From Promethearchaeia archaeon (GTDB lineage: Archaea > Asgardarchaeota > Lokiarchaeia > Sigyniarchaeales > SOKP01): a stretch of DNA of 64,000 nucleotides. Both the position numbers and the translations under genes were made by a program. Below the pieces are notes generated by a model that worked only from the letters and a program-made list of their open reading frames with translations, did no database searches and was not told the origin of the DNA. Below are positions 2,148-34,942 of this stretch, piece after piece. The first letter of the stretch is position 1, and each line of letters starts with the position of its first letter. Location of the stretch: NCBI GenBank assembly GCA_029856045.1, contig JAHQWG010000033.1:64001-128000 (forward strand), read 5' to 3'.

Positions 2148-3101
2148 ATGATCGACCCTTTCACCATATTTTCTGGAATTACTTTATCAATTATAGCAGC
2201 TTTTTGTTTTAATTATTCAATTATTTTAAATAAGAAAGGACTTTTGCAAGGATTACCTGATATCAACTTTGATCAAGGAGTAAAAAGTGTTGTAAAATCA
2301 TTTATTTCTTTTTTTAAAAATAGAGATTGGGCAATTGGATTCTTCTTAGGTATTATTGGATACCTACCGTATCTTATTTCTCAGAGTTTAGTGGGTATTG
2401 TTGTTACACAACCAATAACAAGTGTTGGTTTAATTATATTAGTTTATTTTGCTCATAAAAAGTTGAATGAAAAAATTGGATATATTGAAATTATTTCATT
2501 TATATTAATGATTGGAGGTATTATTCTGATTGCTTTTGCTCAAGTCTCAGATATTTTTATTGACATTTTAAACATCGCATTACTATTAATTCTTTTTAAC
2601 TTAGTATTAATCGGGATTTCAATAGGACTTTTTTTTATGGCATTAAGGAATAAAGGAAAAGGTATTGAAAGTGTTTTAATAATGATAATTGCTGGGTTAA
2701 TAACTTCGATTGGTTCAATACTCTCGGGTGCTTTAGTATTAACATTAAATAGTGGTGAATTCTTTACAATTCCTCTATTAGGAATTTTTGAAATTTTTTT
2801 TGGGATATTTTGGTTCGAAACTTACCATATTTGGGCATTTATTTGCTTTTGGGGATTAATTATCTTTAATATAATTGGATATACATTTGTTCAAGCAGGA
2901 TTACAGAGAGGAAAAGCTGTATTAACATTTCCCATATCAAATACCACAAATTTGATTGTTCCTTTAATTGCTGGATTATTTATATTTCAGCAATCTTTTC
3001 AAAATTACTTCTTATTTTTTATAGGAGCAATCTCAATTACGATTGCGACAATTATTTTATCAAGATTCCAAGCAAAAATCGAAAAAATTGAAATGCTCTA
3101 A
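2148..3101 (+). CDS. DMT-superfamily transporter (NIPA/EamA-like)
   Basis: About 9-10 TM helices; VVTQPITSVGL, LNEKIG, QAGLQRGKA and GLFIFQQ motifs. Confidence 0.7.
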   Translation: MIDPFTIFSGITLSIIAAFCFNYSIILNKKGLLQGLPDINFDQGVKSVVKSFISFFKNRDWAIGFFLGIIGYLPYLISQSLVGIVVTQPITSVGLIILVYFAHKKLNEKIGYIEIISFILMIGGIILIAFAQVSDIFIDILNIALLLILFNLVLIGISIGLFFMALRNKGKGIESVLIMIIAGLITSIGSILSGALVLTLNSGEFFTIPLLGIFEIFFGIFWFETYHIWAFICFWGLIIFNIIGYTFVQAGLQRGKAVLTFPISNTTNLIVPLIAGLFIFQQSFQNYFLFFIGAISITIATIILSRFQAKIEKIEML

Positions 3102-3130
3102 AAAGAAAAGGAATAGAAATATAAATCTCA

Positions 3131-5209
3131 TTATATAATATATTTTTTTCCATATTCTGGAATTACAATTTTTATATCATTTAGTTTCAATGATAAAAAT
3201 AAATTAGGATATTGTGTGTGAATTGGAAAAACAACTTTTGGTTTAATTTGATTAATAATATATTCTAGATCTTTTATTCTTGCATGTCCGGAGCAATGTA
3301 CTTGATAAAAGTTCCTCTCTTCGATTTTAAACAATTTCAACCAACTCATTAGTTTTTCATGTTCTAATTCCATTTCCGGTTCAAAAGGTTCCGATTTTGA
3401 ATGAATGAAAACACTTCCTGGAACGGGACGTAAATCTATCAAACTAAAAAGCGACCAGAAAGGTAAATAAATTACATATAATCCTTGATTGTTTGCGATA
3501 TCGTCGATAGTAATTGGCTTAACTTGATTATTTATTTCAAAATCTTGTTTTGTTTCCTCTTCAAACATATTCTTACTTGCAGGAGAATATGTATAATCTT
3601 CTTTCTCATATAGTCCCCAACCTTTCCTTGAGAGGTAAGGAACTAAATCCATATCTAAAGGTGGAATATTCGAATAATCTCCCTTTATATTATATTTCTT
3701 ATCTTTTAGAGCGTAATTTAATCTTTCAATTAATTTATAAGTATTTGGCATAATTGCTAATTTTCTTCCATTATTTTTAGCTGCTTTAAAAAATGAATTA
3801 ATTCGACTTAAATCTCTCAAGGAACAAGCAAACATAACTAAACCATTTGTTTCTTCAATTATTTTTGTAATTTTCTCTTCTAATATATCCTCACTTTCAA
3901 CCTCTCCCATCTCTCTTGAGCCACTAATATTAGTTCCTTCACATATTAGAACATCTGGCTCGAATTTTCTTCCAATCTCTATAAAATTTAATGTTTTTTG
4001 TTTTAAATTCGATGGGCCATGCATTCTAATATCTCCTGTATATATTATACGTTTATTATTTTCAATATCTTCAATTAAATATGCTCCAGCTCCAGAGGTT
4101 GAATGATCTACTTCATGGAATTTTATTTTAAATGCCCCATTAACTTTTTTTTCACCTAAAAAATAATCCAAAGTTAATTCTTCATTTGAATTTAAAGTAA
4201 TAAAGCTCCTCTCTTTCATTTTAATATCTCTTTTATATCCTCTCCTAAGCTTAGTAAAATCTGCTCTATATGGAACCAAAATAAAATTCTCCATATATTG
4301 AGTAATACCAGAAAAAGTATCACTTTGAATAAATTCAAAATGATCGAGAAATTCCTTAGAGATTTTACTACTAACATTAATCACTCGGGGATCTATAATC
4401 TTTATATCCGAAACATGATCAGAGTGAGAGTGAGTTATTAACACATGACTAATTTGAGATTCACCTATTGGGTTATAACCAAATCTTTTATTCCAAATTT
4501 CATAATTACGTTGATATTTTTGTTTAGAATCATATTTTTTTTTAGTTACTTCACCTGTAATATTGAAAATATACCATTTTTCATTAAAAAAACTACAATC
4601 TATTTTAGCTAATTTATCTCCAAATGCTTTAATAATTGTATTCAATGACTCCTTAACTTCCTCTGCACCATCAAGTCCCGCTTTCGATATAAGAGTAAAT
4701 AAATTGTCTTCATCAATTTTAAAAAATGTAATAAATTTATCTAAATGTTTTTCTGTTAGATTTATTATTTCTCGTATCCCTCCATACTCAATACTGAATG
4801 TTATGCTAATGTTATAGCCAAATTGTGGATTTCCATAATATTTTGTTTCAAGAATATCAATATTTTTGCAAGGGATATGTATGTTTAGAAATTTGTTATC
4901 ATCTGATTCAATTATTCCTAATTCTCTTACTTTTGTAGCAATACCTACTTTTTGTTTTAAAAAATATAAATCCTCTCTATAAAGACCATGAAATGGCGTA
5001 CCGGGTTTAGGTTCCGGGATAAACCCTAAAGTTATATAATCCTCAATAATATTGAATTTTCGAGGATTTAAAAAAGTGTCAAGATATTGATTACTAAAAT
5101 CTTTTCCAAAATCAAGTAGAATAGACTTTTTATTTTTATTTTCAGGAGAAACAAGAATTTTATTGCCACCGATTTTTCCAACTCCACCCCAAAATGAAAT
5201 TGTTGTCAT
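3131..5209 (-). CDS. MBL-fold beta-CASP nuclease (archaeal RNase J-like) with a large N-terminal insertion
   Basis: GGVGKIGGN, LLDFG, THSHSDH, VDHS, YTGDIR, ICEGT, HCSGH and PIHT motifs. Confidence 0.88.
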   Translation of the reverse strand: MTTISFWGGVGKIGGNKILVSPENKNKKSILLDFGKDFSNQYLDTFLNPRKFNIIEDYITLGFIPEPKPGTPFHGLYREDLYFLKQKVGIATKVRELGIIESDDNKFLNIHIPCKNIDILETKYYGNPQFGYNISITFSIEYGGIREIINLTEKHLDKFITFFKIDEDNLFTLISKAGLDGAEEVKESLNTIIKAFGDKLAKIDCSFFNEKWYIFNITGEVTKKKYDSKQKYQRNYEIWNKRFGYNPIGESQISHVLITHSHSDHVSDIKIIDPRVINVSSKISKEFLDHFEFIQSDTFSGITQYMENFILVPYRADFTKLRRGYKRDIKMKERSFITLNSNEELTLDYFLGEKKVNGAFKIKFHEVDHSTSGAGAYLIEDIENNKRIIYTGDIRMHGPSNLKQKTLNFIEIGRKFEPDVLICEGTNISGSREMGEVESEDILEEKITKIIEETNGLVMFACSLRDLSRINSFFKAAKNNGRKLAIMPNTYKLIERLNYALKDKKYNIKGDYSNIPPLDMDLVPYLSRKGWGLYEKEDYTYSPASKNMFEEETKQDFEINNQVKPITIDDIANNQGLYVIYLPFWSLFSLIDLRPVPGSVFIHSKSEPFEPEMELEHEKLMSWLKLFKIEERNFYQVHCSGHARIKDLEYIINQIKPKVVFPIHTQYPNLFLSLKLNDIKIVIPEYGKKYII

Positions 5210-5335
5210 CTTTAAATACCTCTTATCAAATATATTTATAAAATCTAATTATTTATTAAATTAAACATTAAATGATTAACAAATCTTCACAGACTAATAA
5301 TTTATTAAAAAATTTCGCATTAATTAAAAATCAAA

Positions 5336-22425: not shown

Positions 22426-22782
22426 TTAATAAAATTGAGTTCGCAACTTAGAAATCAAAAGACCCTTATCCAATACTTGAATACCATTGTTTTTTCCAAA
22501 TTTTTCTGAAAATTCACTAGATTTACTACAAATCATAACTCCCCCCTCAATATCATCAATATCATTGCAAGCTTTATTTAATTGACGAATCTGAGTTATT
22601 GAGATTTCTCGTTTCCAATCTCGAATAAAGACTCCAAATTTTCCGTTGTCTAATATTAATGCGTCAAATTTCCAAACTTTTCCTGATTTACCTCGAAATG
22701 TTTTTTCTTCATCTATATATCGATAATTCGCAGAAAATAAAATTTTTGCTAATTCTCGCAGGTTTTTATCTTTTAAATCCAA
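22426..22782 (-). CDS. Mrr-like restriction-endonuclease-fold protein, probably catalytically degenerate
   Basis: RGKSGKVWKFDALI..FGVFIRDWKREISITQIRQL..GGVMICS..NNGIQVLD; the expected (D/E/Q)xK is replaced by FIR. Confidence 0.65.
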   Translation of the reverse strand: MDLKDKNLRELAKILFSANYRYIDEEKTFRGKSGKVWKFDALILDNGKFGVFIRDWKREISITQIRQLNKACNDIDDIEGGVMICSKSSEFSEKFGKNNGIQVLDKGLLISKLRTQFY

Positions 22783-23237: not shown

Positions 23238-24086
23238 CTAAAAAAAAGCACTAATTTTTATTAGAGGATAATCTCCTTTATTAGGACCAAATTTTTCTAA
23301 ATATAAATCCAAGATGCTTTTAAAAAAGTTTATTATATTAATCGCAACTACTTCACAAATATTGTTACAATCAAAGTAATTATCTAGAAGCAAAGGACAT
23401 CTTGGATTAAATTTTTTACAATATTTTTTCATTTGGAGTGAAAATCCTTCTGCTTGAAGTGTTTCAAAATAATTCCATGAGTCTTTGAATCCAGCAAACT
23501 CACAAGGCTTTATTTCTTGAAGTCTCTCTTCTAAAGATTTTTTATTGAATTTGAATTTTAAACGGTGTTTTATTTTTTTCAATTCAATAGCAAATTCTGC
23601 TTGACTCCAATTACTATACATCTGGAGTAAAGCTTCAGCTTTTATAACCTTTTCAGGTGAAATTATTCTCCAACCATCTGCTCTTTTACATTTAATATTT
23701 TTATTTTCAAAATTATCAAAATTAGTCGGATATATCCAACACTGAGGAGGTTTAAGACCTGTGGAATGGAGTTTACATCCATTTATCTTTTTATCATAGA
23801 ATGAGCACTTTGCTGTTTTGTCATCAATCCTTATTTGAAATGAAAAAACATCTCCTCTAATAAAATCTTTTTCTTTACCTAATCTTTGTCTTATAATTTC
23901 TTCAGCTAATATTTTTGGGACATCGATAAATATAGAGCAGCAATCAGCATGGCAAATATTTGGGTTTGTACAATCAGGACCTGTTATTCCCTCTTTCATT
24001 AATTTATTGTAATTCCTGATAATTTCTAATATATCCTTTTCAAGGATATTTTGATTTTCTTCTCTATTCAGTTCATTTACTTTCAA
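23238..24086 (-). CDS. YkgJ/CxxCxxCC cysteine-cluster protein
   Basis: CTNPNICHADCC, CSFYD..GCKLH..KPPQCWIYP. Confidence 0.75.
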   Translation of the reverse strand: MKVNELNREENQNILEKDILEIIRNYNKLMKEGITGPDCTNPNICHADCCSIFIDVPKILAEEIIRQRLGKEKDFIRGDVFSFQIRIDDKTAKCSFYDKKINGCKLHSTGLKPPQCWIYPTNFDNFENKNIKCKRADGWRIISPEKVIKAEALLQMYSNWSQAEFAIELKKIKHRLKFKFNKKSLEERLQEIKPCEFAGFKDSWNYFETLQAEGFSLQMKKYCKKFNPRCPLLLDNYFDCNNICEVVAINIINFFKSILDLYLEKFGPNKGDYPLIKISAFF

Positions 24087-24322: not shown

Positions 24323-26485
24323 ATGAGTGATACAGAATTTAAAAAAAATTTATTAATTGTAATTGATATAACCGAAAAAGAAAATACTATTCTCAACGAT
24401 TTAGGAAATATTAAAGAAATAAGTGGAAACGGAAAATTAATTATAAAAAATCCGTCTGATAAAAGTCGATTGTGGAACATTACATGTGATCTAAAAGAAA
24501 CGGTAAAAACTTCATTTTCTGCACGTGAAATAAAAATAGATACTCTAGACCCGTTAAAGGATTTTTCTTCCAATTATACAATTTCTAACATAAAAGAACC
24601 TCTTTTAACAGTTACTGAAAAATTCGATACTTTATCAGATTTTTCAGATCGAGAAAATAACACGTTTTTATTTGCTCAAGATACTAAATGTCAGTTAAAA
24701 CTCCATTTAACAAATCAAATAAGTGGAGATATTATCAATATTAAACTTATTAAAGAGATTCCTCCTATACTTAAAGATATTGAGCTCGTTCCACCTAATA
24801 ATGGAACAGCTTCAATGAAAGAAGAAGAAGGTTCGAATAAAATATTTTGGGAATTAAACTCTTTAGGTGTTGGTCAATCGGCTGAATTAGTAGTAAATTG
24901 TATTGGATTAGCAAATTCCGTAGAAATGCAACCACTTGGAGAAATAAGTGCTACATATCTAGTAAACAATAGAATATTAACAATGATTGATCCAGATATA
25001 GTTGCAATAACAGATTCGATGAGTGGAGTAACAAGGGATGAAGGTAGCAAACCAGGGGTATGGGATTGTAATGTTGAATTCATTAATGAATCTGAATTTC
25101 AAGTAAAGTTAAATGATGTAAGAGTAGAACATAATATTATTACTGGGAAAGAAATTGTAGTATCCCAAGCACCCGGAAAGATTTTAAACAGAGACCAAGC
25201 ATGGGATTATGATTTCATTGTTGAATCTAAAGAAGTCCCTCAATTAGAACCAACTTTCGAATTCACTACTTTATTTACAGTGATAAAACGAGTTGAGGGA
25301 ACTATATATAAAGAACCATTATATTATCCCGTACTTCGGGCAGAAGTTTCAAAAGATATTAAACCAAATGAGGTAGGAGCTTATGCAAATACTGATATGG
25401 AAATCTTTAACACTATTTTTAATAAAGGATCAGCTCCAATCGATAAATTACTGATTACAGATGAAATAAACGAAGATTTTGAACCTCCAGACCTGAATAA
25501 AATTAAACTCTTTGCAAAAACTGGTGGGGAATTAAAAGGAATTTTCGGTAATGAATATGTTAAGGTATTTCAAATTACCCCGGATAATAAGGACTTGACA
25601 AAATCTCATAGAATAGAAATTGAACTATTTAATATGGCAAATGACTTATCATCAGATAGTACTTTAGAAATTTCTTATCCAATAATTGCTCGAAATCCAA
25701 AACCTGATAAATCGTATCAAATTCCAATTACTGTTCAGTTAAATACGAAAATTGAAGGAAAACCCTATATTATTGGCCCAAGTGAAACACCGGAAATAAG
25801 AATTAAATATATTGCTAGAAAATTTAAGACTCTTAAAAGTATTAAGCCAGGTAGTGCAGCGGGGGAGTTTATTGTAAGTATTCGACTCCAAAATCAAGGA
25901 AATGTTGAATTAGAAAATATTCTATTTAAGGATAAAATTCCAGTCAATTTTGAATTGATAAGCTTTTCTCCAATGGAATTGAAATATGAGTTAAATAAGA
26001 TTGAAAATGAATCTGAATTAGTTGTAAGAATTATAGAGTTAAAAGCTGATACTGTATTGAAGATCGAATATCAATGTTCTGGTATTGGTGAATACCCACG
26101 ACATGAACCAGTAGTTATTGTTGAAGGAAGGAAAGACGTCATTTCTCAGCCTGAAGAAAATGTAGAACCAACTGTAAGTAGAACACCCGAATCATCAATA
26201 AGTTCCTTTGCAGAAAACATATCATTCTCAATTAAATCACAAATTATTGATGAGATTATTAATCTTGAGAAAAAAATTACCCCTGGATTAAAATCAGTGG
26301 ATGTTGCCAATATGATTGAATATATGAGAGATCTTATTGCTAACATTGCGAGAGTTGGTCCCTTTATTCATGAAATTGGACAAATTGCAAAAGAGTTTAA
26401 AGATCTAGGAGAAAAAACCGTTGTTGGTGAATCTCACGATAAAATTACCAAAAAAATCAAAGAATGGAAAGCTAAATTTTCATAA
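24323..26485 (+). CDS. Multi-domain protein: adaptin mu-homology-like domain, Ig-like repeats and Vps28-CTD-like helical bundle
   Basis: FKKNLLIVIDITEKENTILNDLGNIKEISGNG and EIPP..GTASMKEEEGSNKIFWELNSLGVG resemble AP mu / delta-COP MHD strands; repeated xxNxGxxxxxxxxxxDxIP Ig-like motifs; helical C-terminus. The CDS is certain, the domain calls are by eye. Confidence 0.6.
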   Translation: MSDTEFKKNLLIVIDITEKENTILNDLGNIKEISGNGKLIIKNPSDKSRLWNITCDLKETVKTSFSAREIKIDTLDPLKDFSSNYTISNIKEPLLTVTEKFDTLSDFSDRENNTFLFAQDTKCQLKLHLTNQISGDIINIKLIKEIPPILKDIELVPPNNGTASMKEEEGSNKIFWELNSLGVGQSAELVVNCIGLANSVEMQPLGEISATYLVNNRILTMIDPDIVAITDSMSGVTRDEGSKPGVWDCNVEFINESEFQVKLNDVRVEHNIITGKEIVVSQAPGKILNRDQAWDYDFIVESKEVPQLEPTFEFTTLFTVIKRVEGTIYKEPLYYPVLRAEVSKDIKPNEVGAYANTDMEIFNTIFNKGSAPIDKLLITDEINEDFEPPDLNKIKLFAKTGGELKGIFGNEYVKVFQITPDNKDLTKSHRIEIELFNMANDLSSDSTLEISYPIIARNPKPDKSYQIPITVQLNTKIEGKPYIIGPSETPEIRIKYIARKFKTLKSIKPGSAAGEFIVSIRLQNQGNVELENILFKDKIPVNFELISFSPMELKYELNKIENESELVVRIIELKADTVLKIEYQCSGIGEYPRHEPVVIVEGRKDVISQPEENVEPTVSRTPESSISSFAENISFSIKSQIIDEIINLEKKITPGLKSVDVANMIEYMRDLIANIARVGPFIHEIGQIAKEFKDLGEKTVVGESHDKITKKIKEWKAKFS

Positions 26486-26560
26486 AAATCTAATTTTTAT
26501 ATATATCTTTTTTTATTATTAATTGAAATGAAGTTATAGAAAGCACAGATTTATTGCTTT

Positions 26561-27694
26561 TTACTCATCATCTGCTTTTGGAATTTTGGGAAGTATCCTT
26601 CCAGAAACTTTAATTGTTTTAGGTTTAGTTTGATTATCTTTAGTTGTTCCTAAAGTGTCTTTCTTTGCACTCGATGTCTTAGATATGACCTTTTTAGCTG
26701 TTTTTTTTGTAGGTGTTTTTTTACTTATCGTTTTAGTGGATATTTTTTTAGCTGGCGTTCTAGAGGTTGTTTTTTTTACCGGAGTTCTAGTTGATGTTTT
26801 ATTATTTCTTATTGGAGTCTTTTTATCTAATGTTAATACTTCAATCCCTTTTATTATAGCACGTTCCTCATCAATATAAACCTTTATCTTATTATTTTCT
26901 AGGTCAATTATTCCACTAGGAAATTTTTTAATTCTTTCCCATTCTATATCCTCAACTTCCTCTCCAAGAACAGTAGTTATCTTAGAGACCGCTCCATATA
27001 AATAGTTCCCCATTATGATATTTTGCCGTTTATATCCAGCTGGAATTTCATTTTTTAAAATTTCATTCAAAATTCTTTTAACTTGATCTTGAGAAAAAGA
27101 TGATTTTTTAGTAGTGTATCCAGGACTTATACTTGATGGAGTTATTGGAATAGGTTTAGAAGTTACTTTTTCATTTACTTGAGGTTTAAAAACAGGAGAT
27201 ACTAGAGTAGATTCCATAGCATTCCCATTAAAACTACCTAAAGCTGGGGAATAATAATCTGTACTTTCTACTTTCTTCGAAACCGGATCTGCATCCAGAA
27301 TTATCCCTTGAATCTTACCATCTCTTTCTATATTTCTAATATATCTCATATCTGGTAATCTTTCAGTTACTTCCATCGATTCTAGACCAAACACATTCAA
27401 AAATTCGACCAATTCATCGCCTTGATCGATTGATTTTATTATACATCGATGAAATCCTGCTGATTTTATTAATTCATTTTGCAGTTCTTGGGCAACTCGT
27501 GAAGATATGAATCTCTTCCGAACTGGAGACTTAGAACCTTTCCAAATAAAAATTCTCCTTAGATCTTCCCTAACTATCACAAATACCTGATTAGGATCTA
27601 AAATTGATCCTAATTCTTCAGAAGATATATTCAGTTCATTTCTATTTCCATCATCTAATAATTCAAAAGCCATAAATTCCTTGTATTCAGTCAT
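26561..27694 (-). CDS. Gelsolin-domain protein with Lys/Thr-rich tail
   Basis: LDPNQVFVIVREDLRRIFIWKGSKSPVRKRF..IDQGDELVEFLNVF matches the gelsolin core (LDxxxVFIL..IFxWxG..QGxExxxF). Confidence 0.8.
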   Translation of the reverse strand: MTEYKEFMAFELLDDGNRNELNISSEELGSILDPNQVFVIVREDLRRIFIWKGSKSPVRKRFISSRVAQELQNELIKSAGFHRCIIKSIDQGDELVEFLNVFGLESMEVTERLPDMRYIRNIERDGKIQGIILDADPVSKKVESTDYYSPALGSFNGNAMESTLVSPVFKPQVNEKVTSKPIPITPSSISPGYTTKKSSFSQDQVKRILNEILKNEIPAGYKRQNIIMGNYLYGAVSKITTVLGEEVEDIEWERIKKFPSGIIDLENNKIKVYIDEERAIIKGIEVLTLDKKTPIRNNKTSTRTPVKKTTSRTPAKKISTKTISKKTPTKKTAKKVISKTSSAKKDTLGTTKDNQTKPKTIKVSGRILPKIPKADDE

Positions 27695-28043
27695 TATTCT
27701 TCTTTATACTTGTCTCAAATTAAAAGCAATTTTCTCTATAACCTTTAGATAAAAGCTCTCTTATTTGAATATTTTTATTTTTAATTTTGTCTAAATCTAC
27801 AAAAACTAATATATTCATATAATATCTATATATATTTTTATCCATCTTCATGTTTTAGATTAATACTATAGGATAATTATGATCTAATCGAAAATAATTC
27901 TATAACGACCATTAAACTCTCGTCTAGCAACCAAATTATCTTAATTTAATCAAAAATATTAATACAAATTTAACAATAATTATATAAATCTTTATTCTCA
28001 TATTGTTATTAAATTAAATTAATCAATTTCATTATTAAAAGGT

Positions 28044-28736
28044 TTGAATAAAATGGGAGTAAATTTTTGCCCAAGTTGTGGTGATCCTTTACAACCTGGT
28101 CAGAAGTTCTGTGAAAAATGCGGTGCTAAAATTGATGACTCTGCACCAGTACCTTCTCAAACTAAAAGTGCTACCAGCCCCGTTCGAAGTGGTGGAATCT
28201 TTGATATTAACAGAAACTACTATGTCTTGAAAGAGAAATACTGGGATTGGGGGTCTGGCGATATTCTTGATGAAAAGGGGCAACCCATCGGGAGAATGCA
28301 TCGAAAAATAATTTCACTTAGAAGGAAAGTTGAGCTTATGGAATTGGATGGTACTATCCAAGCAACAATTCATGCTAAGATTGTTAGTGCAAGAGGATCT
28401 CAAGATTTGAAAGATCCAGAGGGAAATATGATCGCTAGAATCAAAAAATCAATAACTAGTGTTTTTCGCCCTAAATTTTACTTAGAATCTCCTGATGGAG
28501 ATAAATGGTATGAAGCTCAAGGTAAATTCATGGGTTGGTCCTACAAAGTCACAAATTTTAAAACTGGTGAGTTAGTTGCAGAAATCGAGAAAGCTGATCG
28601 GTGGAGGGATGTTTTTTTGGGTGGTATGTTCGATTTTAAGGACACATACGCCTTACGGATTCATGATAATAAAACTGATAGGCGTATTTTAGTGGGGTTT
28701 GTTCTTTCAATTGATAATGTCTTGCATGATAAATAA
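28044..28736 (+). CDS. Zinc-ribbon plus LURP-one-related/scramblase (tubby C-terminal-like) protein
   Basis: FCPSCG..FCEKCG; YVLKEKYWDWGSGDILDEKGQPIG, GELVAEIEK and DTYALRI..LVGFVLSID are LOR-family features. Confidence 0.82.
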   Translation: MNKMGVNFCPSCGDPLQPGQKFCEKCGAKIDDSAPVPSQTKSATSPVRSGGIFDINRNYYVLKEKYWDWGSGDILDEKGQPIGRMHRKIISLRRKVELMELDGTIQATIHAKIVSARGSQDLKDPEGNMIARIKKSITSVFRPKFYLESPDGDKWYEAQGKFMGWSYKVTNFKTGELVAEIEKADRWRDVFLGGMFDFKDTYALRIHDNKTDRRILVGFVLSIDNVLHDK

Positions 28737-28919
28737 TATTTAATTCTTTTTTTTTCTTAACTTCTTTTTTCAAAAATAGTGATAAAAATGATATCATTTT
28801 TAGGAACCCTATTTAACTAGTACAATTTATTCAAACCTAAAGTAATTATTGAAAGATATTTTATTTTAATTAAGAAGATATTTATATAAATAAGTAGAAA
28901 TAATAATAGGTTTTTTACA

Positions 28920-29708
28920 ATGAGTATGATTCGTCTCTTAAAATTAAAGGATTACATCACTCTTTCAGGGACAATTTGTGGGATTTTTGCTTTAATGATT
29001 GGAATTATAATTAAAGATTTAGCTTTGGGATTTTTTTTAATTATGATTTGTCAAGGGACAGATCTGTTAGATGGATATGTAGCAAGAAAATTAAATCAAA
29101 AAAATGAAATTGGAAAAGAAATAGATTCATTAAATGATTTATTTTGTTTTGGAGTTGTTCCTGCAATGTTAATTTTTATTAACTATTGTGATGATTTGCC
29201 CTTTGAATTAATTTTTTACATTCCAGCGATCATTATATTCATTTTGTGTGCTCTACTTAGATTAGCAAGATTTAATATTATGGATGCAAAGGGATATACA
29301 GGGATAGTAACTCCTTTATCCGGTTTAATGGTGACCTTCTTTTATTATATAGATTATTTTAGTATTCAAACTTTTGAAGAAAATAATTTTATTTCAATTT
29401 GGGTTCAATTACTATTTCCATTTTTATTAGGATTTTTGGGTTACTTAAATATTACTACTTTTATTATATATGGTGAAGAGATAAAGAAAAAGTCTGGTAA
29501 CTTAAAATATGTCTTTATTATCGGAGGCATTCTCACAATCGTAATCGGTATAATTGGACTAACTTTTCCAAAACAGTTGGCGGCTCTACCTTTACTTATT
29601 ATATTTATAGGATCTTTTGTATTAGGATGGTTTTATATTTTTATTGGTTTTAAAAATTATTTAAATTCAAGAAAGAATATTAAAAAGGAACTTAATTCAA
29701 CTAACTAA
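28920..29708 (+). CDS. CDP-alcohol phosphatidyltransferase, PssA / archaetidylserine synthase-like
   Basis: DLLDGYVARKLNQKNEIGKEIDSLNDLFCFGVVPA and ALLRLARFN. Confidence 0.88.
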   Translation: MSMIRLLKLKDYITLSGTICGIFALMIGIIIKDLALGFFLIMICQGTDLLDGYVARKLNQKNEIGKEIDSLNDLFCFGVVPAMLIFINYCDDLPFELIFYIPAIIIFILCALLRLARFNIMDAKGYTGIVTPLSGLMVTFFYYIDYFSIQTFEENNFISIWVQLLFPFLLGFLGYLNITTFIIYGEEIKKKSGNLKYVFIIGGILTIVIGIIGLTFPKQLAALPLLIIFIGSFVLGWFYIFIGFKNYLNSRKNIKKELNSTN

Positions 29709-31204
29709 TTTGCCAATCTTTCAATCCAATTTTTAATTCGATTTTTCAGTACTTTTTGTACATCCTCATCAAGCTTTCCTTTATTTTTGACATCTGTTAT
29801 CCAACGGCGTATATCATTTAGTATTACAGAGAAGCCTTTATTTTCAAGAATATAGTCATTTAATTCTTCTAAATGTTTTGCAATTACATTTCCATTTTTA
29901 CTATCTAATTCTTCTGAAATTGCGATAAATCGAGAGCCAATCTCGGTCAATTCTCCCTTTAGAACTCCACTTTTAAGAATTTCATCTTTAATGGATTTCA
30001 ATGGTGCTTTTTCTTTCTTTTCTTCAATGACCTCAATAATTTTTTCCTTTTCTTCAATAAATGTAGAAATTGTATCGATTTCTTTACCAATTGGCTCTTT
30101 CTTCTCAGCAATTTCTCCAGATGGAGGAGGAATTTTTATTTCTTCAGATTTTTTTATGATTTTAATTGGCATTTGTTTTGTTTTTTCAAACAGAAATTGA
30201 AATGCCTGATTATTTTGGTGAATTGGTGAAGACATAAAGTTAAAAACGTTTGCTAATAATTCAAATATTTTTTGGCTAAGAGATTCATCAAAAATGGAGA
30301 ATTTTTCTTCTTCTTTTTCTAAGACCATATTAAAAGTTTTCTCTTGATCACTAATAGTTTGTTCATACTCGTACATTAAATCAAATAAACTCATTCGAAT
30401 CTCATTTTCAATTTTCCCAACTTGAGAAGATATTTCATTAATGTTTTGCTGTAAGATCTCTGAATTTTTTTTAAACACATCAGGTAATTTTTCATTGAAA
30501 CTTTCTTTAATTTCATTAATTTTATTATCAATAATTTTATCTACTAATAATTTTATATCTTTCTGCTTTTTTTTAAGGTTAAATTCTTCGAGATTTTCCA
30601 TAATTTCTTGTTTCGTATTCTCGATTTGTTTTACAAAATTTTGAAAATGTAAATTGAAAACGTTCTCTACCATTTTATAAAATTTACTGGTATTGTTTAA
30701 TAATAGATTTAATTCAGGGATTAATGAAACTCCATCTTCATAATCCGCTTTTATTAAACTTAAATTTGCTACAATTGTGGTTTTTGCTTCTTGAAAATTC
30801 TTAATATAATTTTTTAAATTTAATAAAAATCCAGATTCTTCTTTAATCTCATTAAAAATTTTGGATATTTTATCAGGTAATTCATTGGCCATTTGATTTG
30901 ATTTAACATCAAATTTCTCATAATAATTTAAAAATGCACGATATGGGGGTATAGCGTAATAATAAGGTGTAATTTCCTCGGAAGATTCTGAGTTAGAAAT
31001 ACACAAACCTTTAGTTAAAAGCTCTTCGATTAAACTTTTATTTAATTCTTCATTTGTAGTTTCTGTAATTGATGAGATTTCTTCCATTGTTAAGGGAGGT
31101 CTCCCAATAATTTTTAAATAAAGGTCAAGACTATCATGTGAAAGATCCAATTCATTTAATAATTGAGTTAAAAAATCTTTATCATTATTATTTGCCATAA
31201 TCAA
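29705..31204 (-). CDS. TrmB-like winged-HTH, long coiled-coil and Vps28-CTD-like helical bundle protein
   Basis: LDLSHDSLDLYLKII..LTMEEIS..LIEELLTKGL..YYAIPP wHTH; about 250 aa of heptad-rich helix; C-terminal four-helix domain. Confidence 0.6.
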   Translation of the reverse strand: MIMANNNDKDFLTQLLNELDLSHDSLDLYLKIIGRPPLTMEEISSITETTNEELNKSLIEELLTKGLCISNSESSEEITPYYYAIPPYRAFLNYYEKFDVKSNQMANELPDKISKIFNEIKEESGFLLNLKNYIKNFQEAKTTIVANLSLIKADYEDGVSLIPELNLLLNNTSKFYKMVENVFNLHFQNFVKQIENTKQEIMENLEEFNLKKKQKDIKLLVDKIIDNKINEIKESFNEKLPDVFKKNSEILQQNINEISSQVGKIENEIRMSLFDLMYEYEQTISDQEKTFNMVLEKEEEKFSIFDESLSQKIFELLANVFNFMSSPIHQNNQAFQFLFEKTKQMPIKIIKKSEEIKIPPPSGEIAEKKEPIGKEIDTISTFIEEKEKIIEVIEEKKEKAPLKSIKDEILKSGVLKGELTEIGSRFIAISEELDSKNGNVIAKHLEELNDYILENKGFSVILNDIRRWITDVKNKGKLDEDVQKVLKNRIKNWIERLAN

Positions 31205-31352: not shown

Positions 31353-32486
31353 TTGGTAATAATGGAGATTGATAAGATATCAATTGGAACCGAAGCAACT
31401 TTCCTTCCACCTTTTGAAAATGGCATTAAGACGGTAAAAAGACTTGAAGAAACCGGATATGCTTCTTTATGGTGGGCAGACCACTTAATGGGTTGGATAC
31501 CCGAATCTATCTGGACTCCAGATATTATTAATGTAGCAGCTTATCAGAAAACACCCCATTTTTTCTTTGAAGCTTATACTACGATTGCTGTTGCGGCTTG
31601 GAATACCGAAAGAGTAAAATTGGGCACATCTGTTACTGAAACTTTTAGGAGACATCCTGCTGTACTTGCACAGTCCTTTTTAACTTTAGATCATCTCTCT
31701 AAAGGCAGAGTAATTCTTGGTATCGGAGCTGGTGAAGGTGAAAACGTCATTCCATATGGAATTGAATGGAATAAACCAGTGAGTAGATTGGAAGAAGCGA
31801 TTAAAATTATTAAACTTCTTTGGAAAAATGATAAAAAAGTGGATTTCGATGGAAATTTCTGGAAATTAAAAGATGCAATTCTTGCAATGGGTCCCTATAA
31901 AAATGGGGAATATCCTCCAATATGGATTGGGGCACACGGACCTAAAATGCTTGAATTAACAGGAAAATTAGGAGATGGGTGGTTACCTGCAAATCTAGAT
32001 CTCAATTCCTATAAGAAAGGGCTTAAAATTATTCAAGAGTCAGCAAAAAAAGTTGGTAAAAATCTAGACAACTTCACTCCAGCATTATGGTGTTACGCAA
32101 TTTTAGATGAGGATCATGAGGGTTGTTTAAATATGCTTGAAGCTCCATTAATTAAATGTCTTGCGTTAGTTATGTCCCATGAAAAATTCAATCAATACGG
32201 TATTTCACACCCTCTAGGTGAGAATTATAGAGGTCTTTTCGATTTTATCCCCACTAGGGTTGATCGAAAAACAGTGCTAGAAGCAATTGAGAAAATTCCA
32301 AAAAAAATGTGCGAAGATATCTACTTATATGGAACTCCTGATGAAATTATTGGAAAAATAGAAGAGTATGCTAAAGTTGGTCTCAAACATATAGTAATCC
32401 AAAACGCTACTATTTTTTCGGGTGTTAAAGAAATCAAGACTTCATTTAACTGTTTAAAGAAGGTGTTAAACTATTTTAATGGATAA
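31353..32486 (+). CDS. LLM-class (F420/flavin-dependent) oxidoreductase
   Basis: WWADHL, RHPAVLAQ..TLDHLSKGRVILGIGAGE, PPIWIGAHGPKML..GDGW, YGTPDEI. Confidence 0.93.
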   Translation: MVIMEIDKISIGTEATFLPPFENGIKTVKRLEETGYASLWWADHLMGWIPESIWTPDIINVAAYQKTPHFFFEAYTTIAVAAWNTERVKLGTSVTETFRRHPAVLAQSFLTLDHLSKGRVILGIGAGEGENVIPYGIEWNKPVSRLEEAIKIIKLLWKNDKKVDFDGNFWKLKDAILAMGPYKNGEYPPIWIGAHGPKMLELTGKLGDGWLPANLDLNSYKKGLKIIQESAKKVGKNLDNFTPALWCYAILDEDHEGCLNMLEAPLIKCLALVMSHEKFNQYGISHPLGENYRGLFDFIPTRVDRKTVLEAIEKIPKKMCEDIYLYGTPDEIIGKIEEYAKVGLKHIVIQNATIFSGVKEIKTSFNCLKKVLNYFNG

Positions 32487-32670
32487 AATATTTTATTTTA
32501 CTTTCTTTTTTAATTTAAATCACTCTAGAATTTTCAGATTCTTCACTGACAAATCTAAAGTTAAGAGAAAGAAAGAAATTTAAATTATTTAACATATATA
32601 CTCTTGAGAAAATAGAAATTATTAAAATTAATTATATTATCCTATCATAAAAAAATGAGGTTAAATACAA

Positions 32671-33420
32671 ATGATTGTCCCCTATACTCTCCCGCTTGAT
32701 TTATTAGAAGTATTTCAAGGAAGTTTTAGTTTGATTTTTGCTATTATTTCAATATTTGTAGGATTACGAATTCTATTTAAATATTTTGAATATAAGAGAA
32801 GAGAATTAATCCTTGTCGGAATATCATGGATTGGAATAGCGAGTCCTTGGATTCCTGATTCAATTAATTTTATAATGATTTTAGGCTTTAGTTCTATTCT
32901 TACAGAAGAAGCCTATCTCATTATCGGAAATGTTTTTATGCCGTTTTTCATTATTTGCTGGTTAATAGTAATTACCGATTTTTTGTATAAAGTAAGACAA
33001 AAGGTGATACTCATATTATGTCTTATTTGGACTGTAATTTTCGAAATAATTTTTTTTACATTACTCTTTATTGACTCTACATTAGTTGGAACATTTCTAG
33101 GACCATTTCAAGTAGAATTTGGTGATTTTATCACATTTACGTTATTATTTACTATTGTTATATTATTAATAAGTGGCTTATTGTTTGCTCGAGAATCACT
33201 AAAGTCAGAGGATAAAGAAATTAAATTGAAAGGGAAATTTCTCATAGCTGCATTTCTTTCATTCACTATTGGTGCGATTTTAGACTCATCAATTTCATTA
33301 ATACCAATAACTGTAGTAATTACTAGGTTAATTTTAATATCAAGCGCAATTGAATTTTATCTCGGCTTTATCTTACCTAAATGGGTAAAAAAATTTTTAA
33401 TTAAGGGATTAAAAAGGTAA
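32671..33420 (+). CDS. Stand-alone 7-TM membrane protein (HisKA_7TM-like; Lokiarchaeia-type family)
   Basis: Seven hydrophobic helices with short loops, C-terminal GFILPKW, no soluble output domain. Confidence 0.6.
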   Translation: MIVPYTLPLDLLEVFQGSFSLIFAIISIFVGLRILFKYFEYKRRELILVGISWIGIASPWIPDSINFIMILGFSSILTEEAYLIIGNVFMPFFIICWLIVITDFLYKVRQKVILILCLIWTVIFEIIFFTLLFIDSTLVGTFLGPFQVEFGDFITFTLLFTIVILLISGLLFARESLKSEDKEIKLKGKFLIAAFLSFTIGAILDSSISLIPITVVITRLILISSAIEFYLGFILPKWVKKFLIKGLKR

Positions 33421-33571: not shown

Positions 33572-34942
33572 ATGATAGAACTCCAAAAAGAAGATTTATT
33601 CATTTTTATCGATATAACAACTGATTTCTTAAAAAAAAAGACACTTTTTAAAGGACTTAAAGAATTAATTGATAAAAAGAAACAATTCAATATTTTAACA
33701 ATATTTAATTTGCTGTTATTCAAAGAAGATGCCAATCCTTTATTGATAATGGATAAAACCTCTTATGGAGAGATAATTGATATTTTATCTGAAAACTGGA
33801 GTTATAGAAATAAAACAAGCCTATTTGAGAATGGGATGTTTCTAACTTTATCTGAAATTCTAAAGAAAGCAAAAAAAGGTGTTGCAAATTATCGTATTAT
33901 TGTAATTACAGATAGTCCAAGTGAAATCCCCGAAGAAATGCAAGCAACCTTATTTGATCTTATAAGCAAGGTAAAGATTCTTCCAACATTCATAGATATT
34001 GTAAGAGTAGGAGATAAAAAATTCTATGCTGATGATGTAAAACTTAAAATAATTACAATGGAAACTACTGGTGGGATGTTTTATGCTGATTCTACTAATT
34101 ATTTTATGAACATTATGAATATTCTTGCAAAAAATAAACAAATTCAAAATGTTATTGTTGGAGAAATTAAGAAACAGATACAACCAGAAGATAAAACATT
34201 TTATGAAAAACTAGCTAGTGATTTACTTTCTCCAGAATCTGGAGAAGAATTAACTTGCACAATATGTAATATGCCCATTTGTCCAATATGTTTAGATAAA
34301 AATGATACTCCTCACAAATGTTTTAATTGTAATATTTCCTATCATGAATGCTGCGCTGCCCAATATTCCGCACTTAAAAACATTGGGCTTATTCATATTT
34401 TTAGATGCGCTGGTTGTGGTACTCTATTAAAATTAGAGGAAAATATGGTTCTCGAAAAAGCAAAAAATATTGAACAATTAAAATTTATTGAAGAAGATAT
34501 TGAAACTTTAGAGGAAAAAAGAAGGGAAGCAGTCAAAACTCCGATTCCTTCTAGTTCCGAAGAATTTATCTCAATATCTTCCGAAACAGAAATTTCAGAT
34601 GAAAATAAAGCTGATTTTATAATTGTAGACAGTGAAGAGTCAAAAACATTTGAAGATTTAGTACCTTCTCCCCCACCTCCACCAACTATCAAGAAAAAGA
34701 TAAGAATTGGAGGTTTTTTTGGACCTGAAATAGAAATAGAAGAAAAACAACAACAACAACCTCAAAAAGAAATAAAACCGCAAAAATATTGGTCTCCTAC
34801 TGGATCAACATCTTCCCAAATTTCTTCTATTACTCAATTAAATCCTCCAAAAACAAAACCTCTATTAAGGTTTTGCAAAATTTGTGGAGGGCCAATAAAA
34901 GGAAATGATAAGGCTTGTAGGTCATGCGGAGCTCCTGTTTAG
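33572..34942 (+). CDS. vWA-like domain, RING/PHD-type zinc finger, Pro-rich linker and C-terminal zinc ribbon
   Basis: EDLFIFIDIT, YRIIVITDS, FIDIVRVG, ETTGGMFY (vWA); CPIC..CFNC..YHECC..CAGC; PSPPPPP; FCKICG..CRSCG. Confidence 0.68.
   Translation: MIELQKEDLFIFIDITTDFLKKKTLFKGLKELIDKKKQFNILTIFNLLLFKEDANPLLIMDKTSYGEIIDILSENWSYRNKTSLFENGMFLTLSEILKKAKKGVANYRIIVITDSPSEIPEEMQATLFDLISKVKILPTFIDIVRVGDKKFYADDVKLKIITMETTGGMFYADSTNYFMNIMNILAKNKQIQNVIVGEIKKQIQPEDKTFYEKLASDLLSPESGEELTCTICNMPICPICLDKNDTPHKCFNCNISYHECCAAQYSALKNIGLIHIFRCAGCGTLLKLEENMVLEKAKNIEQLKFIEEDIETLEEKRREAVKTPIPSSSEEFISISSETEISDENKADFIIVDSEESKTFEDLVPSPPPPPTIKKKIRIGGFFGPEIEIEEKQQQQPQKEIKPQKYWSPTGSTSSQISSITQLNPPKTKPLLRFCKICGGPIKGNDKACRSCGAPV

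Follow-up and report, generated by a model that had tools for sequence, protein, structure and literature searches.

The DNA stretch analysed here (hereafter the window) comprises 64,000 nucleotides of contig JAHQWG010000033.1 (positions 64,001 to 128,000 of the forward strand) in assembly GCA_029856045.1 of a Promethearchaeia archaeon (Asgardarchaeota; Lokiarchaeia; Sigyniarchaeales; SOKP01). The assembly is 3.34 Mb long in 55 contigs, 100% complete and about 28% G+C, and its closest public relatives are metagenome-assembled genomes labelled Promethearchaeota or Promethearchaeia. Five consecutive genes between positions 24,323 and 31,204 of the window, here numbered 1 to 5, had been read in a preliminary description as a coupled system of cargo adaptors, membrane lipids and actin remodelling. 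All five open reading frames (ORFs) lie exactly where that description had placed them, and since intact orthologues exist in dozens of related genomes they are real genes and not chance frames. The five-gene observation was thus confirmed. The genes are as follows.

24323..26485, plus strand: gene 1, 720 amino acids (aa), a soluble protein with a mu-homology-domain (MHD) fold, Ig-like/DUF11 sandwiches and a four-helix C-terminal domain (ORF and AlphaFold2 model)

26561..27694, minus strand: gene 2, 377 aa, a 1DGelX-type gelsolin with a domain X, a polybasic tail and a C-terminal LPKIP motif (profiles and alignment)

28044..28736, plus strand: gene 3, 230 aa, an N-terminal Zn ribbon (residues 8-30) and a barrel of the LOR/Tubby-scramblase superfamily (residues 74-221) (Pfam)

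28920..29708, plus strand: gene 4, 262 aa, a PssA-like CDP-alcohol phosphatidyltransferase, multi-pass membrane protein (PF01066 and 7POW)

29705..31204, minus strand: gene 5, 499 aa, a weak TrmB-like winged helix-turn-helix (wHTH; residues 16-87), a long helical/coiled-coil region and a four-helix C-terminal domain (residues 418-498)

The strands alternate across the five genes, which form at least four transcription units, and the earlier caveat that they are not one operon was borne out.

Comparison of gene order among relatives divides these genes into two separately conserved groups. The synteny scan used one genome per species, and the best 80 gelsolin loci were taken. The family of the window is denoted f1 and its sister families f2 and f3. 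Group A consists of gene 1 and a neighbour encoding a CxxCxxCC-type protein; group B consists of gene 5, PssA (gene 4), LOR (gene 3) and gelsolin (gene 2) together with a gene for a protein with vWA-like, RING-like and Zn-ribbon regions. All five group B genes, in the order vWA/RING, gene 5, PssA, LOR, gelsolin, are present in 56 of the 80 loci, the others being mostly cut by contig ends. Inspected at the ORF level, 18 genomes from 12 other genera had the block together and the vWA/RING gene directly beside gene 5. Nearly all f1 loci have the LOR and gelsolin genes in the same direction, separated by short spacers. Gene 1, in contrast, adjoins the gelsolin gene in only three of the 80 loci, all from the genus of the window, and in 14 other genera the surroundings of the gene 1 orthologue (41-51% identity) never contained gelsolin, LOR, PssA or gene 5. 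In the f1 loci that reach upstream of gene 1, its partners are instead a 282-aa protein (14 of 15) and a 118-aa protein (13). Relative to the ancestral layout, the genus of the window has the LOR gene inverted, a monooxygenase gene and a membrane protein gene inserted, and the side carrying HEAT-repeat and DeoC genes replaced by the gene 1 group. The idea of one locus flanked by two adaptors therefore fails, because only in this genus does gene 1 adjoin the block, and elsewhere it is paired with the CxxCxxCC protein. The neighbours concerned are listed below.

22426-22782, minus strand: 118-aa protein, gene 1 partner, without a family match

23238-24086, minus strand: 282-aa CxxCxxCC-type protein, gene 1 partner (PF03692, E 0.0011, below cut-off)

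31353-32486, plus strand: luciferase-like monooxygenase (PF00296, E 2e-63), in the genus-specific insert 31353..33420

32671-33420, plus strand: multi-pass membrane protein with about 6-8 hydrophobic segments, in the same insert

33572..34942, plus strand: 456-aa protein with a vWA-like N-terminal domain, a Cys/His-rich RING/PHD-like finger, an IRIGGFFG motif and a C-terminal Zn ribbon

Linkage within group B extends in part to the sister families. Arrangements in f2 include gelsolin-macro-LOR-PssA and gelsolin-macro-X-PssA, the latter beside PIN-ATPase and EndA genes, and f3 shows gelsolin-PhoU-PssA. Thus, three families that differ wholly in their other flanks (PIN-ATPase, EndA, PhoU) all have the gelsolin gene within 1-3 kb of LOR and/or PssA. 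Because the flanks differ, the sister families are more telling on linkage than the family of the window. The f2 macro-domain gene, which separates gelsolin from LOR or from the ORF standing in the place of LOR, matches PF01661 with E values of 1e-37 to 1e-39 (L099:4397-4972, L102:4449-5021 and L097:3306-3872); the block in the family of the window lacks this gene. A 220-aa ORF that takes the LOR position in one f2 genus was considered as a LOR gene and rejected, as it is not LOR-like. At a greater distance, a survey of 121 genomes across the phylum gave orthologues of the gene 2-type gelsolin (E <= 1e-18) in 24, of which 23 belong to the taxonomic order of the window. Among five Asgard genomes further removed, one has the PssA type. 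With the two types so limited, there is no conservation among Hel-, Thor- or Heimdallarchaeia to cite for the locus. Conservation of gene order thus holds for genes 2 to 5 with the vWA/RING gene, and partly into f2 and f3, but not for gene 1.

The product of gene 1 has no hydrophobic segment, and three regions can be distinguished in it.

24338..25318, plus strand: residues 6-332, MHD fold (structure match)

25325..26122, plus strand: residues ~335-600, two to three Ig-like beta-sandwiches of DUF11 type (strands of the model and TIGR01451)

26198..26479, plus strand: residues 626-719, four-helix domain common to gene 5 (model and profiles)

An AlphaFold2 model built from an alignment of 19 orthologues (predicted local distance difference test score, pLDDT, 86) is all-beta up to residue 600, beyond which come a disordered linker and then, within 635-719, four helices (635-651, 658-675, 679-694 and 703-719). 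When Foldseek candidates were re-aligned with VIA-align, residues 6-332 superposed on the AP2 mu2 chain 5wrk_A with a Z score of 16.9 and a root-mean-square deviation (rmsd) of 3.2 A over 225 residues. MHDs (of AP1-4, COPI delta and SGIP1) made up all of the 47 top-ranked structural entries, and unrelated Ig-array adhesins of far poorer coverage ranked next. Foldseek template modelling (TM) scores normalised by target were 0.56-0.64. In the model the MHD begins at residue 6, with no longin or other domain before it. The sole family match from sequence profiles is a TIGR01451 DUF11 repeat at residues 519-549 (24.6 bits), consistent with the beta-sandwiches of the model. The MHD-like, Ig-like and four-helix parts that had been proposed for gene 1 were thus all recovered, the first by structure and the last in predicted models. 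ESM Atlas clusters that show the same beta architecture (TM scores of 0.6-0.84) come from Promethearchaeota, Thorarchaeota and Thermoplasmatota, and all of them carry DUF11. The beta fold of gene 1 thus extends beyond Asgard archaea. Eme et al. 2023 (PMC10307638) reported an unfused mu C-terminal Pfam domain from some Asgard genomes. Our literature search turned up no paper joining the mu homology domain and archaea.

In sister-family orthologues of gene 1 (L031:3372-5441 and L032:8913-10982), a CxxC...CxxC Zn ribbon replaces the terminal four-helix domain. In these ends, a zinc ribbon is swapped in for the Vps28-C-terminal-domain-like module. [quoted passage not shown]

The four-helix domain at the end of gene 1 is shared with gene 5, where it occupies the following position.

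29711..29953, minus strand: gene 5 residues 418-498, Vps28-CTD-like four-helix domain (model and structure searches)

Profile comparison of the two C-terminal domains with hhalign gave a probability of 94% (E 1.5e-7) over 81 columns, i.e. their full length, and a profile of the shared domain (A7) found the gene 1 domain at E 5.5e-14. Homology of the two domains is thus shown at the level of sequence profiles, and the relationship that had been noted between the ends of genes 1 and 5 stands. Plain BLASTP between genes 1 and 5 gave no similarity, so that the shared domain is visible by profiles only. The last ~90 residues of gene 5 are strongly conserved. Searched against 1.84 billion representatives, the profile of the shared domain retrieved 174 clusters, in which the domain is often repeated, stands alone or is joined to other regions. 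Among 60 diverse carriers, the Pfam families beside it were TrmB, BAR, Roadblock and coiled-coil-like repeats, never VPS28. Five ORFs in the genome of the window carry the domain.

A model of the shared domain from a 72-sequence alignment consists of four helices (pLDDT 89.5). Its top Foldseek match was the Xenopus Vps28 CTD (2J9W; probability 0.99, TM score 0.62, E 0.2), and a VIA scan of 48,161 chains placed the yeast Vps28 CTD (2j9u_A) first (Z 10.5, rmsd 2.3 A, 84 residues). The 72-sequence profile compared with Asgard Vps28-C by hhalign gave 59.5% (E 9e-5, 81 columns). The expected folds were recovered to different degrees: strongly for the MHD, clearly for gelsolin, and for the Vps28 CTD as the top match in two independent searches with borderline support from sequence. 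We consider it fairly likely that the shared domain is Vps28-CTD-like by true homology. Three further searches were of little help: the shared-domain profile matched only chance-level helical proteins among the PDB sequences, the full gene 5 profile did likewise, and an ESM Atlas feature search with the domain reached a best score of 0.77, which is uninformative.

The steadiness-box N-terminal half of Vps28 is absent from genes 1 and 5, which carry other N-terminal domains. Therefore, they are not ESCRT-I core subunits. PF03997 matches in the genome of the window were a true Vps28 of 214 aa (C37:19983-20579) and a region of a 789-aa fusion protein (C36:77934-78206). This second Pfam-recognised Vps28 C-terminal domain ends a protein of about 790 aa in each genome and does not belong to the domain family seen in genes 1 and 5. 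It is known that the Vps28 CTD binds an NZF finger. By analogy, a complex was predicted between the gene 5 C-terminal domain and the C-terminal motif/Zn-ribbon piece of the vWA/RING protein; the score of 0.00 is evidence neither way.

Gene 2 was recognised as a gelsolin from its N-terminal region.

27380..27682, minus strand: gene 2 residues ~5-105, gelsolin/cofilin domain (profile and PDB matches)

As a single sequence, gene 2 matched the Thorarchaeota gelsolin ProGel (PDB 7c2f_B) at E 1e-5, and a 27-sequence profile found four solved Asgard gelsolins (7c2f_B 1e-6, 7c2h 9e-6, 7whf 6e-5 and 7whg 3e-4), bearing out the gelsolin assignment; the Pfam Gelsolin score is 15.6 bits, below the cut-off of 21. 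These matches cover only residues ~4-104 in the N-terminal domain, while domain X and the tail match nothing. In the alignment of 27, the core pattern RRIxIWKG...VRKRFISS...DxGDE is invariant over the orthologues, and three motifs are kept outside the gelsolin domain (DMRYIRNIER, EEYYSPAL and the terminal KRxLPKIP). Domain X is a conserved region of about 90 aa, duplicated in some orthologues, and the tail holds 25 K/R against 5 D/E in 82 aa, i.e. a charge of +20. Judged by its sequence, gene 2 matches the 1DGelX class described by Akil et al. 2020 (PMC7444086). The Thor member of that class needs no calcium to sever and nucleate actin, and in human cells it locates to endoplasmic-reticulum-like membranes (PMC7444086).

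Gene 3 matched both the PF13240 Zn ribbon (33 bits, above cut-off) and, at residues 74-221, PF04525 LOR (40 bits against a cut-off of 24.5), so that its description as a Zn-ribbon LOR protein was upheld. Its score against PF03803 Scramblase (19.1 bits) is below the cut-off of 25.4. Gene 3 orthologues share 60-75% identity family-wide.

The PssA-like nature of gene 4 was likewise supported, by PF01066 (59 bits) and by the best solved relative, the phosphatidylserine (PS) synthase of M. jannaschii (7POW, E 4e-18). The catalytic motif DG-x2-AR-x8-G-x3-D-x3-D is intact at residues 51-73 of the translation. The best-scoring NCBIfam models were PssA models, and all equivalog models scored below their cut-offs (TIGR00473 pssA 97.8 of 107 bits, TIGR04217 83.7 of 200 and NF038087 76.7 of 240). 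From these similarities, gene 4 is probably an archaetidylserine synthase. The genome encodes four CDP-alcohol transferases, one of them PssA-like. PssA is single-copy per genome and occurs in nearly every f1-f3 genome. The PS decarboxylase family PF02666 was not found in this 100%-complete genome, while the same search was positive in three control archaea. Because this is the sole PssA-type enzyme and no canonical PS decarboxylase was found, the serine lipid archaetidylserine is probably an end-product anionic lipid, as far as gene content can tell. The PssA of MK-D1 retains serine-binding residues, and PS-like lipids have been argued for that organism (10.1101/2025.05.16.653879). A literature search turned up no paper tying an Asgard gelsolin to PssA or a scramblase.

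Gene 5 belongs to a multi-paralogue family whose members are mostly 600-800 aa long, and, against a family length given as 600-700 aa for its closer members, it is shortened; positional orthologues share only 20-24% identity. Most orthologues contain an alpha/beta middle domain of about 130 aa (columns 400-530 of alignment A2), which is lost in the genus of the window and is likewise missing from the orthologues in two other genomes. This middle domain matches no Pfam family, and a Pfam scan of 21 full gene 5 orthologues gave nothing useful and no VPS28. Against TrmB (PF01978), gene 5 scored 17.3 bits (E 0.004), below the cut-off of 25.6, and among the 60 proteins with a gene 5-type C-terminal domain four reach E <= 1e-3, the best at 1.2e-7. 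Of the architecture proposed for gene 5, the four-helix end is well modelled, while the wHTH has only this weak match.

The vWA/RING gene is the ancestral divergent partner of gene 5, adjoining it in 56 of the 80 loci, and the two share a divergent promoter region in most genomes. The Cys/His pattern of its product is invariant in the alignment. The label vWA-RING is itself weakly supported (VWA E 4.5e-4 in a paralogue; RING-box/PHD E 0.1-0.9). Most relatives carry two tandem vWA/RING/Zn-ribbon paralogues (e.g. L118:1109-2446 and 2595-3923), and the genus of the window has one. Between this gene and gene 5, the insert with the monooxygenase and membrane protein genes is found at that position only in the genus of the window. 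The membrane protein is the one earlier called a seven-transmembrane (7TM) protein. In another genus, genes homologous to it are found upstream of the gene 1 group at a distance of a few kb (L021:1687-2379; L024:3629-4321 and 4550-5263). By eye, the 118-aa partner of gene 1 resembles a small restriction-endonuclease-like PD-(D/E)xK domain, which makes it a candidate for that fold.

We prefer to explain the interval as two separately conserved gene groups that were joined by a rearrangement at the genus level, with group B concerned with lipids and actin and genes 1 and 5 each bearing a docking domain, and we would give this explanation an even chance of being right. Group B is the ancestral group, in which PssA probably makes a serine lipid as a final anionic lipid. 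The Zn-ribbon LOR protein and the gelsolin with its +20 tail may act at that anionic membrane, where the gelsolin might sever or nucleate actin filaments. In group A, gene 1 is a soluble single-chain protein combining an MHD fold with Ig-like sandwiches. The shared four-helix domain may serve as a portable docking module, perhaps for ESCRT-II, as has been proposed for the published Vps28-C class. Mechanistically, the most defensible idea is that the polybasic gelsolin, LOR and PssA would connect membrane lipids to actin, which is plausible, and that genes 1 and 5 would use one docking domain separately from each other. The results give no support for groups A and B working together.

Several observations weigh against this explanation, and part of them would fit an inheritance of gene order alone, in which the genes are functionally unrelated neighbours in genomes too little diverged to be scrambled. 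In f1, the HEAT-repeat, DeoC aldolase, DUF711 and HdrA/MvhD-like genes beside the block are kept almost as often as the block itself (the metabolic genes in 37-40 of 43 full-length loci), with the whole 17 kb syntenic. As these adjacent metabolic genes are likewise syntenic, gene order within the family is weak evidence of coupling. Linkage is broken in several f2 genera: one complete genome has LOR-macro-gelsolin with PssA 20 kb away, and in another genus PssA, LOR and gelsolin are all unlinked. The near-universal, single-copy state of PssA and the alternating strands also agree with unrelated neighbours. Such inheritance would not readily explain why gelsolin stays near LOR and/or PssA across three families despite different flanks, or why LOR and gelsolin remain co-directional with short spacers in f1, and we see it as a possibility on the unlikely side. 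Other points bear on the domains. The MHD of gene 1 is recognised by structure only: the Pfam PF00928 hidden Markov model (HMM) found no match in gene 1 (E <= 1) and none genome-wide (E <= 10). Since the beta fold of gene 1 occurs also in DUF11 proteins of Thermoplasmatota, an adaptor function is not necessarily implied. As for the Vps28 identity, CheA P1 ranked second in the VIA scan (Z 9.6), and a Z score of 10.5 can lie in the chance range for helical bundles; smaller profiles of the shared domain gave hhalign probabilities of 29% and 6% against Asgard Vps28-C, making a range of 6-60%; and the PF03997 HMM matched neither gene 1 nor gene 5, nor any of 21 domain sequences or 60 full carriers. 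Finally, the ESCRT genes of the genome lie on other contigs and are unlinked to the locus.

The last point tells equally against the preliminary description, which had taken the five genes with the 7TM and vWA-RING genes as one coupled cargo-adaptor, lipid and actin system with two ESCRT-I-like adaptors. That interpretation is partly supported, in that the MHD fold, the shared Vps28-CTD-like domain, gelsolin, LOR and PssA were all recovered and part of the gene order is conserved. The arrangement of the window is also kept in three other genomes of its genus, but at 78-94% identity this conservation carries no weight. The juxtaposition of the two groups is genus-specific, as is the insert with the 7TM and monooxygenase genes, and the full coupled system appears very improbable. 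A regulatory coupling can be considered instead, in which gene 5 would be a TrmB-like DNA-binding regulator of PssA, of LOR-gelsolin or of the RING gene, with a wHTH, a coiled-coil dimerisation arm, and effector and docking domains. The ancestral gene 5 layout (wHTH, long helices, alpha/beta domain) resembles that of TrmB-family regulators, and the TrmB matches among proteins with the same C-terminal domain and the promoter region shared with the RING gene point the same way. The TrmB match of gene 5 itself is, however, below the Pfam cut-off, and the middle domain that would be the effector part matches no family and is lost in the genus of the window. Moreover, winged helices also make protein-protein contacts in ESCRT-II (10.1101/2024.02.06.579148). 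We thus regard such a regulator as unlikely. A bolder possibility would be a module specific to the Loki order, in which the serine lipid would mark the inner leaflet, the Tubby/LOR-fold protein and the polybasic one-domain gelsolin would read the mark so as to remodel actin, and a RING ligase with gene 5 would reach ESCRT-II via a divergent Vps28 CTD, while gene 1 would separately be a single-chain MHD cargo adaptor on the same ESCRT docking site; we put this forward as an improbable but specific proposal.

Trafficking-type domains of Asgard archaea are central to the debate on the origin of endomembranes, and for few of them is there a partner or a context that can be tested. The present locus provides three handles: a high-confidence MHD fold that is fused to a docking domain and missed by sequence profiles; a small Asgard-restricted four-helix family (the 174 clusters) that is found on many architectures and has the ESCRT-I/II connector as its best match by structure; and a recurring neighbourhood of gelsolin, LOR-fold and serine-lipid-synthase genes, suggesting a lipid-actin link that could be assayed in vitro. 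If true, the link from adaptor directly to ESCRT would have no eukaryotic counterpart. The division into two groups also corrects the tempting picture of a "proto-trafficking operon".

Among known systems, the MHDs of the AP1-4 mu subunits, COPI delta and FCHO/SGIP1 are closest to the N-terminal part of gene 1, with the whole two-subdomain beta fold superposing over 225 of about 250 residues. Gene 1 differs from them in sequence (12% identity and no HMM match) and in having DUF11-type Ig domains after the MHD. It is without an N-terminal longin domain and gives no sign of a heterotetramer. The gelsolin of gene 2 shares with Thorarchaeota 1DGelX (PMC7444086) one gelsolin/cofilin domain with a non-gelsolin extension after it, but the extension here is the conserved domain of about 90 aa with the polybasic tail and LPKIP end, with no predicted coiled coil. 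Gene 4 resembles the M. jannaschii archaetidylserine/phosphatidylserine synthase (7POW) as a CDP-alcohol phosphatidyltransferase with an intact catalytic motif, and differs in being longer by about 60 residues at the C-terminus, where it has additional hydrophobic segments.

The shared domain of genes 1 and 5 is a four-helix bundle of the same size and topology as the yeast and Xenopus Vps28 CTDs (2J9U and 2J9W), the best match in both searches, although identity is 15-16% and a true Vps28 is encoded separately in the genome. For Asgard proteins in which Vps28-C is joined to adaptin-appendage, IG-like or HTH/PCI domains, a role as ESCRT-0 analogues has been proposed (10.1101/2024.02.06.579148). 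The domain in genes 1 and 5 differs from that of Makarova et al. 2024 in being unseen by the Pfam VPS28 HMM, and gene 1 differs further in having a full MHD fold in place of the adaptin appendage (IG + TBP) of that paper. The likenesses are several: a C-terminal four-helix module of about 90 aa after adaptin/IG-like beta domains, as in gene 1; an HTH and a coiled coil before the module, as in gene 5; and a patchy, Asgard-restricted distribution on many architectures, including BAR and Roadblock/longin-type partners. Genes 1 and 5 appear to be members of the class of multidomain Vps28-C proteins published for Asgard archaea (10.1101/2024.02.06.579148).

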